From a virus (lineage: Duplodnaviria > Heunggongvirae > Uroviricota > Caudoviricetes), in the IMG/VR virus record IMGVR_UViG_2541047680_000005: a stretch of DNA of 12,296 nt; one strand, given 5' to 3'. This document shows positions 2,883 through 10,748 of the stretch, piece after piece; within the stretch, counting starts at the first letter, position 1, and each line of letters starts with the position of its first letter. The notes beneath the pieces were generated by a model that ran no database searches, was not told the DNA's origin, and worked only from the letters and a program-made list of their open reading frames with translations. The position numbers and the translations under genes were made by a program.

Positions 2883-3135
2883 ACAAGTTATGTTCAGGAA
2901 ACCGTCGAAGCCAGAATTAAGGTATTCGGGGGTAAGAAATGAATATGTTATCTGGTGTCCAACTTGTGGTTACAGGACACGACCAGATAGTAATAAGCAG
3001 TCTGTAATTGCCGATTGGTATTTATCAAATCAGCCAGGTAATAAGCATATAGAAAATCTTTGGATTAAGCGTTACTTGGAAATCAGAGAGGGTGCGACCG
3101 TGGTCGCACAAGAAAATGAAAATAACGCCATTTAA
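2815..3135 (+). CDS. Small Cys-rich (CxC...CxxC) putative zinc-ribbon protein
   Basis: Track ORF. Contains FCLC and CPTCGY. Start is uncertain: ATG 2815 overlaps the upstream gene by 68 nt, and the alternative ATG at 2890 lacks an SD and would drop the first Cys pair. The last 15 codons include one copy of the 18-bp palindrome. Confidence 0.4.
   Translation: MRRRSAVKSSNAIGQEVPFCLCKQVMFRKPSKPELRYSGVRNEYVIWCPTCGYRTRPDSNKQSVIADWYLSNQPGNKHIENLWIKRYLEIREGATVVAQENENNAI
3092..3109. repeat. 18-bp palindrome copy 2 (GTGCGACCGTGGTCGCAC)
   Basis: Perfect 8-bp arms with GT centre; at the 3' end of ORF 2815..3135, where it again encodes ATVVAQ. Confidence 0.6.
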
Positions 3136-5992: not shown

Positions 5993-6196
5993 ATGTCTGA
6001 AGCAGCCGTATCAACTCTTGAACAACTCGATTCAAATTTGAGAGATATTGACGCCGTTCTGGATCTGGTTAGCGTCACCCTGGCTTCTCCAGAAGCCAGC
6101 CTACATATTGGTGAGGTTTCACGACTCATCAACATGTCGCGAGAGATTGCCCAGCATTGTCAGAAAACTATCGCTGTTGAGCGTTCACATCATTGA
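5993..6196 (+). CDS. Hypothetical small acidic protein (67 aa)
   Basis: Preceded by an AT-rich intergenic region with TTGACC at 5914..5919 and TATAAA-like hexamers at 5948..5961. Weak SD. Convergent with the antitoxin gene. Confidence 0.4.
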   Translation: MSEAAVSTLEQLDSNLRDIDAVLDLVSVTLASPEASLHIGEVSRLINMSREIAQHCQKTIAVERSHH

Positions 6197-6238
6197 TGCA
6201 CACCCCGCCCTTCTGGACGGGGTAGTAAAAGAGTCTAA

Positions 6239-6526
6239 TTAATAAACAGCGCGAATATCGATGGTTGCGCCGCAGGCATGAGCATATTTAGCCAAAGTTT
6301 TCATACTTGCCCCTAAAGGATTGCTTTCCAGGCGGCTGATGGCTGACGGTCGCAACCCCATTCGTTCAGCCAGAGCTGATTTCGTTAAACCTGCTCTTTC
6401 CCTCATTTCGTATAACATTTCGACCATCTCCAGCTCTTTGTCGGCCTCTTCATATCCTTTGACGGCTTCTGGAGTGTTGAGGAGTTTTTCTTTTACTTCG
6501 TTAAACGGGATGCCTTTCGCTTTCAT
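6239..6526 (-). CDS. HigA-like antitoxin (XRE-family HTH)
   Basis: 95 aa, with HTH segment LTKSALAERMGLRPSAISRLE. The start overlaps the toxin stop (ATGA at 6526) and the gene lies downstream of the toxin, the HigBA-type order. Confidence 0.8.
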   Translation of the reverse strand: MKAKGIPFNEVKEKLLNTPEAVKGYEEADKELEMVEMLYEMRERAGLTKSALAERMGLRPSAISRLESNPLGASMKTLAKYAHACGATIDIRAVY

Positions 6527-6837
6527 CAGTTCATCTCCTTCAGGCGAGTTCTGGCGATTTCGATAGCCTTCACCGGTGTTTTCTGTGTCTTTTTTACAAA
6601 TGCATGCAATAGATAAATTTCGTTACCAGTCGCGTAGGCGTACAGCGTTCTTGCGATGTTTTTATCCCCTACTCGTAGTTCAAAAAGCCCTCCACCTATT
6701 ACACGGCTATGGGGCATCTTCAGTTTGTTGCCTTCCTTCTCCAGTCGCTCAATTAATCTGGTCATGCGACCTCGCAAATCATCTGGTAGTTCAAGCAGTT
6801 CATCCAGTGCTGCAGGGTGGGTTATCACGTTAAACAT
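6526..6837 (-). CDS. RelE/ParE-superfamily toxin of the HigB / phage Gp49-like group
   Basis: 103 aa; size, toxin-first order and overall sequence resemble the Gp49-like (DUF891) killer proteins as I recall them; the family is named after phage N15 gp49. Confidence 0.75.
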   Translation of the reverse strand: MFNVITHPAALDELLELPDDLRGRMTRLIERLEKEGNKLKMPHSRVIGGGLFELRVGDKNIARTLYAYATGNEIYLLHAFVKKTQKTPVKAIEIARTRLKEMN

Positions 6838-6895
6838 ATTATAGCCTCCATAGCCATAAAATACACCAAAACAAGAAAAAAGCGCAAATTAAAAA

Positions 6896-6913
6896 TTTCA
6901 CTAAAAAGTGAAA
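6896..6913. promoter_or_regulatory. Inverted repeat TTTCAC-TAAAAA-GTGAAA in the toxin-antitoxin promoter region (candidate operator)
   Basis: 6-bp perfect arms read directly, ~60 bp upstream of the toxin start codon on the minus strand. Confidence 0.4.
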
Positions 6914-7002
6914 AATAACACTGGATGTGTTCGTTTGGCAGAGTTACAGTTCGTGTCATTGAGGGGCAATAACCCACTAACTATATGAATTTGGAGGATA
7001 TT

Positions 7003-7224
7003 ATGAATTATCAAGGTAACGAAAAAATGCGCGACGACGTTGCGGAGATAGCTAACGAACTGTATGAGTTGTGGCAGAAGGTTGAACGTTTCGAAAAGGA
7101 ATATGGTTTCAACAGTACCAACCTGGCAGACCGACTGGCTGGTCGCTTAGTTGGGACTATGGGGCCAAAACTGGCTGAGTTGAACCGCTTTATGGCTGAT
7201 GTTGATTTCCAGTTTCAAGATTGA
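7003..7224 (+). CDS. Hypothetical protein (73 aa)
   Basis: GGAGG at 6993..6997, 5 nt before ATG 7003 (track ORF starts at the earlier ATG 6985, which lacks an SD). Divergent from the toxin-antitoxin operon. Confidence 0.55.
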   Translation: MNYQGNEKMRDDVAEIANELYELWQKVERFEKEYGFNSTNLADRLAGRLVGTMGPKLAELNRFMADVDFQFQD

Positions 7225-7470: not shown

Positions 7471-7488
7471 GTGCGACCACGGTCGCAC
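7471..7488. repeat. 18-bp palindrome copy 3 (GTGCGACCACGGTCGCAC, arms extend to 10 bp)
   Basis: Begins 6 bp after the stop of gene 7238..7465, at the head of the structured noncoding region. Confidence 0.6.
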
Positions 7489-7573
7489 AGCACAAAAACG
7501 AAAAAGCTTGGCAAAATTACGGTTTTTAGTTATTGTTTTGTTAAGTTGGGTTTTTTGTACCCAACAGCCAACA

Positions 7574-7597
7574 AGCCGCCTTTATGGCGGTTTTTTT
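7574..7597 (+). terminator. Intrinsic terminator (short GC stem CCGCC / GGCGG, loop TTTAT, then T7)
   Basis: Stem 7576..7580 / 7586..7590 followed by TTTTTTT at 7591..7597; downstream of the small-gene pair and upstream of the methyltransferase. Confidence 0.5.
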
Positions 7598-7684: not shown

Positions 7685-7698
7685 GCGATGCGCATCGC
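7685..7698. repeat. Perfect 14-bp palindrome GCGATGCGCATCGC
   Basis: Read directly; contains the ATG at 7688 that the ORF track uses as the methyltransferase start. Confidence 0.45.
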
Positions 7699-7732
7699 CG
7701 GGTTAGCTTACCCAGGCAAAAAAATAATAGCT

Positions 7733-8809
7733 ATGTTCAAAACCACTAATATTCATGGCGCGCAACTCGTTTGCGCAGATTCTCTGCAATTTATCAAAAC
7801 CATCCCTGATAACTCGGTCAATTTGATTGCAACAGACCCACCATACTTCGGCGTAAAGGCTAACGCATGGGATAACCAGTGGGATAGCGATGCTGACTTT
7901 TTGGGGTGGATTGATGAATTTTTGGCAGAATTTTGGCGGATATTGGCCCCTAATGGCAGCCTGTATATGTTTACCGGCTCTCGCCTTGCGTCAAAAATTG
8001 AATTATTAACTCGCGACCGTTTCAATGTTCTGAACCATATCATTTGGGCTAAACCCAGTGGTATGTGGCGCGGTTGTCATAAAGAAAGTTTAAGGGCTTA
8101 TTTTCCTGCCACTGAAAGAATATTATTTGCAGAGCATTACGGCGCGTCAGGTTATGCTAAAGGTCAGTCAGGTTATGCTTCAAAATGTGCAGATTTAAGA
8201 AAAAATATTTTTTCTCCACTAATTGATGCTTTTTCGCTGGCTCGCCGTCAGTTAGATATATCAGCCGCAGACATTAATTCAGCAACAGGAAAGCAGATGT
8301 GTTCGCACTGGTTTTCTTATTCGCAGTGGCGGCTTCCATCATTAAGTGATTTTAATAAACTATGCGAATTATTTCGCAGGAAGGCAGATTCACTCGGTGT
8401 CCCGTGTCCATATCCTTTTAATGTTGATTATTCAGAACATGAAAAGCGTTATAGCGATCTGAAATTGCGTTATGAGGAAGTAAAGAAGCAGTATGATGAT
8501 TTGAAGGCTCAGTATGAAAATTTGCGCCGCCCATTTCATGTTACTGCTGATGTACCTTATACCGATGTATGGGAGTTTCCTCCTGTGCAATATTATCCTG
8601 GCAAGCACCCATGTGAAAAACCTGCAGCGATGATGGAACATATTATAAAAAGTAGTTCCCGCTCCGGAGATATCGTTGCCGATTTCTTTATGGGATCAGG
8701 CTCTACTATTAAAGCCGCGCTGAAGTTAGGTCGTCAGGCAATCGGTATTGAGATTGAGGGTGAACGTTATCTTCAGACAGTTGATGAAGTGAAAAAGTTA
8801 TTTGAGTAA
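7733..8809 (+). CDS. Orphan beta-class DNA methyltransferase (N6-adenine or N4-cytosine)
   Basis: DPPY (motif IV) near the N-terminus in NLIATDPPYFG and FFMGSGST (motif I, AdoMet binding) near the C-terminus; this motif order defines the beta class. A coiled-coil-like insert (YSDLKLRYEEVKKQYDDLKAQYENLRR) lies between them. Start ATG 7733 chosen so DPPY sits ~35 aa from the N-terminus; the ATG at 7688 is possible. No restriction endonuclease partner is visible. Confidence 0.8.
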   Translation: MFKTTNIHGAQLVCADSLQFIKTIPDNSVNLIATDPPYFGVKANAWDNQWDSDADFLGWIDEFLAEFWRILAPNGSLYMFTGSRLASKIELLTRDRFNVLNHIIWAKPSGMWRGCHKESLRAYFPATERILFAEHYGASGYAKGQSGYASKCADLRKNIFSPLIDAFSLARRQLDISAADINSATGKQMCSHWFSYSQWRLPSLSDFNKLCELFRRKADSLGVPCPYPFNVDYSEHEKRYSDLKLRYEEVKKQYDDLKAQYENLRRPFHVTADVPYTDVWEFPPVQYYPGKHPCEKPAAMMEHIIKSSSRSGDIVADFFMGSGSTIKAALKLGRQAIGIEIEGERYLQTVDEVKKLFE

Positions 8810-10510: not shown

Positions 10511-10528
10511 GTGCGACCGTGGTCGCAC
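10511..10528. repeat. 18-bp palindrome copy 4 (GTGCGACCGTGGTCGCAC)
   Basis: 20 bp after the stop of the DUF4406-like gene. Confidence 0.6.
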
Positions 10529-10730: not shown

Positions 10731-10748
10731 GTGCGACCGTGGTCGCAC
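10731..10748. repeat. 18-bp palindrome copy 5 (GTGCGACCGTGGTCGCAC)
   Basis: 24 bp upstream of the start codon of gene 10772..11632; with copy 4 it brackets a ~200-bp noncoding stretch. Confidence 0.6.

Follow-up and report, generated by a model that had tools for sequence, protein, structure and literature searches.

The window analysed here, a stretch of 12,296 nucleotides (nt) from the Caudoviricetes record IMGVR_UViG_2541047680_000005 of IMG/VR, carries on its minus strand two short overlapping genes preceded by a palindrome and a putative promoter. We assign this locus, with a probability of about 0.9, to the gp49–gp48 type II toxin–antitoxin (TA) cassette of an N15-like plasmid-prophage, that is, to a Tad–Ata pair from the Gp49 branch of the HigBA-like systems. 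Its features, in window coordinates, are the following; open reading frame is abbreviated ORF and amino acids aa.

6526..6837, minus strand: toxin gene, an ORF of 103 aa with a predicted RelE fold, orthologue of N15 gp49 (Tad, or Gp49-type HigB)
6239..6526, minus strand: antitoxin gene, an ORF of 95 aa, orthologue of N15 gp48 (Ata, HigA-like)
6845..6849, minus strand: Shine-Dalgarno sequence GGAGG of the toxin gene, 7 nt 5' of the ATG and invariant across all aligned homologues
6535..6540, minus strand: Shine-Dalgarno sequence AAGGAG of the antitoxin gene, located within the end of the toxin gene and kept in N15 and phiKO2
6858..6887, minus strand: putative sigma-70 promoter of the operon, inferred from alignment, with a -35-like TTGCGC (6887..6882), an 18-nt spacer and a -10-like TATTTT (6863..6858)
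6896..6913, either strand: 18-bp palindrome TTTCACT-TTTT-AGTGAAA (minus-strand reading), probable antitoxin operator and also the 5' edge of a mobile cassette

The two overlapping minus-strand ORFs, of 103 and 95 aa, were confirmed in position and length as the initial annotation had given them. The stop codon TGA of the toxin gene (6528..6526) and the ATG of the antitoxin gene (6526..6524) have one base in common, in the form TGATG, and this overlap, together with the internal AAGGAG, suggests that translation of the antitoxin is coupled to that of the toxin. When the codons are compared with those of N15, the toxin gene exhibits 41 synonymous and 8 non-synonymous differences, and the antitoxin gene 42 and 14, respectively. 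This mostly synonymous divergence indicates that both are real genes under purifying selection.

With regard to its family, the toxin matches Pfam Gp49 (PF05973), of which N15 gp49 is the namesake, with an E-value of 2.5e-29 and 101.6 bits (cut-off 23.9), covering 90 out of 90 profile positions. The 835 relatives gathered in a protein-collection search carry PF05973 without exception. Gp49 was the sole Pfam family matched at E<=0.01, the canonical (Rts1-type) HigB family giving no match to the toxin, and the NCBIfam scan did not assign the toxin to any family. The partner protein harbours an XRE-type helix-turn-helix (HTH) domain: it matches HTH_3 with an E-value of 2.8e-12 (residues 38-90), the XRE-HTH spanning residues ~36-92 after an N-terminal segment. 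For the antitoxin, NCBIfam returned generic weak HTH matches only, and the PDB sequence search gave weak matches to M. tuberculosis HigA2 (7ewc), HipB and S. pneumoniae HigA (6af3_B). Its expected recognition helix, PSAISRLE, is invariant in every N15-clade antitoxin examined. PF05973, HTH_3 and the orthology to N15 gp49–gp48 thus uphold the initial reading of a toxin-first type II TA pair made of a Gp49 toxin and an XRE-HTH antitoxin. The accompanying label 'HigB/HigA-type' remains valid for the architecture and the fold, but not for the family, since the toxin belongs to the Gp49/Tad branch and not to the Pfam family of Rts1 HigB.

An alignment of 33 homologues drawn from the 835 relatives was used to build an AlphaFold2 model of the toxin (mean pLDDT 86.5, pTM 0.80), in which the secondary structure elements follow in the order E-H-H-E-E-E-E-H, a RelE-type arrangement, in which helices flank an antiparallel sheet of four strands, completed by a long C-terminal helix. 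The top Foldseek match to this model in the PDB is the ribosome-bound HigB1 of M. tuberculosis (TAC toxin; 7nbu_Y), with a TM-score of 0.77, followed by S. pneumoniae HigB (0.72–0.75) and by RelE, YoeB and YafQ (0.48–0.65), all with a Foldseek probability of 1.00. ParE toxins come below HigB1, HigB and RelE (0.41–0.51, E>0.02), and the HigBA structure of Shigella flexneri (5ycl) is a low-ranked match with an E-value of at least 0.067. A PDB search with the toxin sequence gave S. pneumoniae 6af3_A as the best match (E=5.5e-5), and the nearest two relatives were the same as by fold.

HigB1 has been characterised as a ribosome-dependent RNase whose toxicity requires K58, R68, N73, R77, K95 and K99, with a contribution of E66, and in which F93 is a core residue (Mansour et al., PMC9098466). 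According to the HMMER alignment, K58, E66, R68, N73 and R77 correspond to R45, E53, R55, N60 and R63 of the toxin, and F93, K95, Q98 and K99 to F80, K82, Q85 and K86; this mapping comes from sequence alignment, and the R63/R77 pair is one position off. Across the 33 homologues, E53, R55, R63, F80, K82 and R/K45 are invariant or conservatively replaced, and N60, Q85 and K86 are kept only in the closest relatives, being variable in distant ones. The complete set of invariant residues comprises P42, S44, G50, F52, E53, L54, R55, I61 and R63, as well as Y66, L77, F80, K82, K83, P88, A95 and R98. Two Gp49-type paralogues of M. tuberculosis, HigB2 and HigB3, are non-toxic and are devoid of the residues equivalent to K58, N73, F93 and K99 (PMC9098466), all of which are present in the toxin, as R45, N60, F80 and K86. 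In view of the HigB1-like fold and the conserved pocket residues, mRNA cleavage in the ribosomal A site is the most likely activity of the modelled protein.

The window region is 100% identical to Escherichia phage PhiR46_1, which originates from E. coli ECOR13, 99.8% identical to phage YDC107_1, and shares 77% DNA identity with phiKO2, a Klebsiella phage. The record of PhiR46_1, a 46-kb phage, contains telL and telR ends, ParA/ParB, a 4-kb primase/RepA gene coding for an N15-type RepA, a cI-type repressor and lambda-like structural genes. The source element is an N15-like linear plasmid-prophage. At an identity of at least 91%, the cassette is present in 16 of 5,426 complete E. coli genomes, and in 16 out of 16 it resides on a plasmid of 36–75 kb. 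The plasmid lifestyle supposed initially is therefore well founded, with regard both to the telL/telR ends and the ParA/ParB and RepA genes and to the replicons on which the cassette is found. In N15, phiKO2, KpLi5 and an Enterobacter phage-plasmid, the pair occupies an equal place in an equal orientation, leftward between rightward homologues of gp47 and gp50. This shared position indicates that the cassette belongs to the fixed gene content of the N15/phiKO2 group and was not inserted recently, so that the word 'inserted', used in the initial annotation, has to be withdrawn.

The way in which such a cassette may operate can be outlined as follows. The RelE-fold toxin, if it is the RNase that we predict, would enter the ribosomal A site and cut mRNA, thereby stopping translation, while the N-terminal part of the antitoxin would cover the toxin and its C-terminal XRE-HTH dimer would bind DNA. 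Sitting on the palindrome just upstream of the putative -35 element, the antitoxin would autoregulate the operon. As the operon opposes the rightward early genes, its expression would be possible in the plasmid (lysogenic) state. Following loss of the prophage, the antitoxin, presumed to be unstable, would no longer be made, and the leftover toxin would kill or arrest the cell; such post-segregational killing would stabilise the plasmid-prophage. Toxicity and plasmid stabilisation are proposed here by analogy, from the literature on the N15 orthologue. The N15 pair reportedly stabilised heterologous replicons, and its toxin is reported to be bactericidal in E. coli when overexpressed and to be neutralised by the antitoxin. 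For the window pair, the purifying selection and a relative with a truncated toxin and no antitoxin lend indirect support to such an activity.

The palindrome on which this regulation would depend is perfect, with arms of 7 nt (TTTCACT/AGTGAAA) separated by 4 nt, and lies 59–76 nt 5' of the toxin ATG. An inverted repeat TTTCAC-N6-GTGAAA had already been reported at this place; it is indeed present, but each arm extends one base further (TTTCACT-N4-AGTGAAA). The palindrome is one of 23 short inverted repeats in the 1 kb in which it lies and, taken alone, does not go beyond chance. It does so because it is conserved and because, in relatives, it is changed on two sides at once. No other intergenic block is as well conserved in N15, phiKO2, Kpn74 and the Enterobacter element; KpLi5 shows one mismatch. 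The exact 20-mer occurs 30 times in IMG/VR, at 57–59 nt before a Gp49 start codon in 27 of these cases. In the plasmid lineage the arms read TTTCAT…ATGAAA, and in Xenorhabdus and Erwinia TTTCTC…GAGAAA, the symmetry being kept by changes in both arms. When 11 homologues, picked by homology and not by motif, were aligned over the palindrome, 94.8% of the cells were complementary and two positions had undergone both-sided changes. The resulting covariation score was reached by none of 500 shuffles, and moving the partner arm by 1–3 columns brought the pairing to 22–51%.

Further observations bear on the role of the palindrome. The window has a single copy of it, and a search of the entire 46-kb phage found no second one that would hint at a wider regulon. 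In distant Gp49 operons (identity about 45–50%), other palindromes of 18–22 bp, unrelated to this one, stand just 5' of the toxin gene, such as CATAACTT-AA-AAGTTATG in Haemophilus. Furthermore, the TTTCTC…GAGAAA arms of the Xenorhabdus (L014) and Erwinia (L015) loci go together with a PSAITRLE helix, and the TTTCAC…GTGAAA arms with PSAISRLE; this apparent co-variation of the recognition helix with its DNA concerns one or two lineages and is only suggestive. Because of the conservation of the palindrome, its coincidence with the cassette boundary, its symmetry and uniqueness, and the palindromes of distant operons, an operator bound by a dimeric antitoxin is favoured, and an operator role of the palindrome appears, from these comparisons, somewhat more probable than not.

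The operon promoter was located by alignment. At the corresponding position N15 has TTGTGT-17-TATATT and a Salmonella plasmid copy TTTACA-18-TATAAT (11/12), the consensus being TTGYGY-17/18-TATWTT; the -10 region reads TGTATTTT in the window and TATATTTT in N15. Several points weigh against the scheme outlined above. The window promoter matches the consensus poorly and does not reach the threshold of the scan. Relative to the inferred start site, the palindrome would occupy about -62 to -45, a placement upstream of the -35 that is unusual for a simple repressor, and the palindromes of distant homologues, unlike that of the window, sit over the -10 or the start region. In a close relative from Pseudocitrobacter the left arm is degenerate, and the N15 record labels the palindrome as a putative terminator. 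Finally, a consensus scan of eight homologues detected no conserved internal promoter for the antitoxin gene. The N15 pair is reported to have a promoter in front of each of its two genes. The autoregulatory operator of the initial annotation is hence supported as far as conservation and symmetry are concerned, and weakened by its placement upstream of the -35. As for another candidate promoter, the sole site called by the scan on the minus strand (7007..6980) is not conserved in relatives and was rejected.

The label in the N15 record corresponds to a different explanation, according to which the palindrome would be a weak intrinsic terminator or insulator protecting the toxin gene against incoming leftward transcripts, and the antitoxin would bind elsewhere, for instance over the -10. 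That record specifies a rho-independent terminator; in the window the hairpin is followed by TTTTT and has a folding energy of -6.2 kcal/mol (z=-2.7), and changes on both sides of the arms would preserve an RNA stem as well. Moreover, a degenerate second copy of the motif covers the -10 region, in the form of a direct repeat (6858-6880 versus 6893-6915, 74% identical). However, the stem is A+T-rich and weak and was not called by the terminator scan, neither N15 nor phiKO2 nor pCoo keeps the T-run, and the fold of the pCoo palindrome is no more stable than that of shuffled sequence (z=-0.16). Nor was a conserved promoter found from which transcripts could run into the palindrome, and its size of 18 bp matches that of the palindromes preceding distant Gp49 operons. 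A terminator is thus an unlikely function for this element, although the most serious competitor of the antitoxin operator.

The limits of the cassette can be drawn from its copies on conjugative plasmids, which are 82–84% identical to it. Their similarity spans window positions 6914 to 6241, beginning at the palindrome, or no more than about 10 nt ahead of it, and ending at the stop codon of the antitoxin gene, and the Xenorhabdus and Erwinia copies have nothing in common with the window upstream of the palindrome. As the similarity is bounded by the palindrome and the antitoxin stop, the mobile unit consists of the palindrome, the promoter, the toxin gene and the antitoxin gene. The copy in pCoo (IncFIA/IncI) adjoins replication genes, and that in an IncI plasmid of E. 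fergusonii adjoins another stability pair. At the nucleotide level, the window allele is 83–86% identical to the plasmid copies versus 77–80% to N15. It also has in common with the conjugative-plasmid lineage, and not with N15, the loss of one base from the promoter region, GGTGTATTT where N15 has TAGTATATTT, GGAGGCTATAATATG before and at the start codon, and L15, T70 and a KAIE stretch in the toxin. Because the window allele is closer to the plasmid copies than to N15, alleles of the cassette have likely been exchanged between phage-plasmids and conjugative plasmids.

Decayed forms of the cassette were also observed. Klebsiella phage Kpn74, an N15-like phage from river water, encodes a truncated toxin (L007 1501-1773, 87 of 103 residues matched) and has no antitoxin gene; loss of the antitoxin and inactivation of the toxin appear to go hand in hand there. 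In IMG/VR, a contig of 46,532 bp from Pantoea stewartii (L116) has kept the exact palindrome (1010-1029) and a promoter remnant next to the gp50-side gene, but the coding region of the pair is replaced by a rightward gene for a hexapeptide-repeat (acetyltransferase-like) protein, and a Gp49 protein reported from a P. stewartii contig of equal length (P0044), possibly this one, is not encoded downstream of the palindrome. In many large plasmids (130–195 kb) of E. coli and Salmonella, all that is left is a 230-bp fragment that covers most of the antitoxin gene, matches window positions 6316-6546 with 83.5% identity and is listed without a gene; these fragments look like orphan antitoxin remnants. 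The Kpn74, Pantoea and plasmid cases fit the usual decay of addiction modules.

TA systems of prophages can serve in phage defence or lytic control, and the pair could mainly be devoted to anti-phage defence by abortive infection, or to control of the lytic cycle, instead of plasmid addiction. As it lies antisense to the rightward early operon, the TA operon could be disturbed by lytic transcription. In addition, deletion of the related SXT pair s044–s045 did not increase the loss of its native element (PMC2654960). This result advises caution in presuming a strong stabilising effect of such a pair in its own element, even where a test plasmid is stabilised. With regard to defence itself, PADLOC-DB yielded no full defence-model match, only a partial match of 53 residues to the end of the 293-position NsnC profile (E=2.6e-7) and generic HTH matches. 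The N15 orthologue has been reported, in a title, as a stabilising system, and the cassette is common on conjugative plasmids beside replication and other stability genes. Abortive infection, which had been put forward initially, is unsupported, and we consider a principal role in defence or lytic control improbable compared with plasmid addiction.

The intergenic region upstream of the toxin gene could also contain a gene for a small RNA (sRNA) resembling RyhB, located between the gp50-like and toxin genes at about 6975..6889 (minus strand), with the palindrome as its terminator. When 2 kb were searched, Rfam RyhB (RF00057) gave a full-length sub-threshold match at 6889..6960 (minus strand; E=0.039, 26.3 bits). 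In N15-like phages, the 60 nt that adjoin the palindrome show striking conservation, and two blocks upstream of it, CTCAACGACACGAACTGTAACTCTG and ACACATCCAG, hardly vary; moreover, the site at 7007..6980 resembles a promoter (TTCATA-16-TATAGT, minus strand). However, the score is far under the gathering score of 55, the -10 of this promoter-like site is not conserved, and the alignment fold shows no covariation outside the palindrome, with a consensus energy of only -5.7 kcal/mol. Furthermore, the cassettes of plasmids, Xenorhabdus and Erwinia have kept the palindrome without the CTCAACGACACGAACTGTAACTCTG and ACACATCCAG blocks, which could equally be control sequences of the gp50-like gene. 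We therefore regard the sRNA gene as very improbable. Somewhat less so, yet still improbable, is a broader proposal with two branches: either the palindrome is a specificity-determining operator of Ata-type antitoxins, unusually located 5' of the -35 and co-varying with a recognition-helix residue, or the conserved 60 nt represent an unrecognised RyhB-like sRNA terminated by the palindrome. Either branch, if true, would add an undescribed regulatory layer to N15-like phage-plasmids. The antitoxin operator remains the reading that we prefer for this element.

That the toxin could be a ParE-like gyrase poison or an inactive relic, as the bare RefSeq name 'RelE/ParE family toxin' and the non-toxic Gp49-type HigB2 and HigB3 of M. 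tuberculosis (PMC9098466) might suggest, is the least probable of all, given TM-scores of 0.41–0.51 for ParE versus 0.55–0.77 for HigB1, HigB and RelE, the presence of the residues that HigB2 and HigB3 lack, the strong purifying selection, and the fact that the sole relative devoid of the antitoxin also has a truncated toxin.

The neighbourhood of the cassette comprises the following features.

5993..6196, plus strand: gp47-like gene, 67 aa, facing the antitoxin end (convergent)
7003..7224, plus strand: gp50-like gene, diverging from the toxin start
6202..6223, either strand: G+C-rich hairpin (inverted repeat) between the convergent antitoxin and gp47-like genes

The initial description of the pair as convergent with its flanking genes consequently applies to the antitoxin end, which faces the gp47-like gene, but not to the toxin start, from which the gp50-like gene diverges. 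As minus-strand RNA, the hairpin has a folding energy of -19.4 kcal/mol (z=-3.4); no U-tract follows the stem, which went uncalled in the terminator scan. The hairpin probably marks a transcript end or serves as a terminator, and at the equivalent spot N15 has a different hairpin followed by a T-run. In PHROG, the gp47-like protein matches its own family, which has no known function, and weakly also the anti-repressor family phrog_10889 (E=6e-8).

An ORF of 44–50 aa over the intergenic region (6825..6977, minus strand) was discarded as a gene, its frame being broken by 1-nt indels in N15 and phiKO2. The PhiR46_1 record has a coding sequence (CDS) of 44 aa at 6825..6959 (minus strand) running across the palindrome and the promoter, which is probably spurious, and a similar small CDS is found in KpLi5.

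Two other elements of the window were noticed. Another 18-bp palindrome, GTGCGACCACGGTCGCAC, is present in five scattered copies (649-666, 3092-3109, 7471-7488, 10511-10528 and 10731-10748), one of which carries a single mismatch and lies inside repA. In phiKO2 this sequence is annotated as a 'putative plasmid partitioning site', and the window copies look like the scattered centromere sites of N15 type. Just upstream of a methylase gene (7688..8809), a promoter-like TTGGCA-17-TATTGT (7508-7536, plus strand) precedes a strong terminator hairpin and its T-run (7573-7593, plus strand). Both N15 and phiKO2 have an annotated late promoter and terminator at the place of 7508-7593, which is probably the target of a Q-like antiterminator.

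The module as such is already known; being the founding example of the Gp49 family, it is ordinary rather than a discovery. What is new is the comparative support for the palindrome as a part of the cassette and its probable operator, the definition of the mobile unit, and a correction to the annotation of PhiR46_1. In RefSeq, identical copies are already annotated as a type II toxin and an HTH regulator, and in the GenBank record of PhiR46_1 toxin and antitoxin are both 'hypothetical proteins'. The practical value of the present analysis lies in the annotation of these hypothetical proteins and of the spurious 44-aa CDS. In other respects, it describes a mobile unit common to N15-like phage-plasmids and conjugative IncF/IncI plasmids, and provides a concrete operator candidate for work on Tad–Ata autoregulation.

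Among the systems to which the pair can be compared, P1 Phd–Doc consists of unrelated proteins, Doc being a Fic-family kinase, and has the antitoxin gene first. It resembles the window pair in being an addiction module of a plasmid-maintained prophage (PMC12977533). The HigBA system of Rts1 and Proteus vulgaris has in common with the window the toxin-first order, a toxin of the RelE superfamily and an HTH antitoxin, but Gp49-type toxins show little similarity to HigB of this type (PMC5906591). M. tuberculosis HigB1 (HigB-TAC, Rv1955; PDB 7NBU/7AWK) is closer in structure, with a TM-score of 0.77, the long C-terminal helix and the pocket residues in common, though it is only about 27% identical to the toxin; its system depends on a third component, a SecB-like chaperone, for which the window contains no gene. 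HigBA of S. pneumoniae (PDB 6AF3/6AF4) and HigBA2 of the A. baumannii plasmid pAB120 are arranged as in the window, with a Gp49-type toxin followed by an XRE-HTH antitoxin, but share only about 20–25% identity with it and have unrelated operator sequences. The pAB120 pair stabilises plasmids and has an RNase toxin; its promoter is repressed by the antitoxin, for which the toxin acts as corepressor.

The prototype of the group is Tad–Ata from plasmid pAMI2 of Paracoccus aminophilus, whose toxin belongs to COG4679/DUF891 and whose antitoxin belongs to COG5606/COG1396 (PMC2701414). Likened to the window by description, it has a Gp49/DUF891 toxin, an XRE-HTH antitoxin and the toxin-first order, and it is plasmid-stabilising (PMC2701414); this system of an alphaproteobacterial plasmid is expected to be a distant relative.

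The closest known system is the gp49–gp48 pair of N15, one of the loci studied in Dziewit et al. 2007 (J Bacteriol 189:1983), whose title, as cited in PMC2701414, PMC5906591, PMC3581621 and PMC12977533, presents it as a stabilising TA system of the Tad–Ata type; PMC12977533 treats the N15-type pair as an addiction module of phage-plasmids. The toxin is 92.2% identical to N15 gp49 (and 91.3% to phiKO2 Gp49) at the amino acid level, and the antitoxin 85.4% identical to N15 gp48. At the nucleotide level, the toxin gene is 80% and the antitoxin gene 77% identical to N15, about 20–23% of positions differing, mostly synonymously; identity to the pCoo copy is slightly higher, at 83%. The N15 and window pairs have identical gene lengths (312 and 288 nt), the toxin-first order, the position between gp47 and gp50, and the upstream palindrome in common, and in both the stop and start codons overlap by one base, in the form TAATG in N15 and TGATG in the window.

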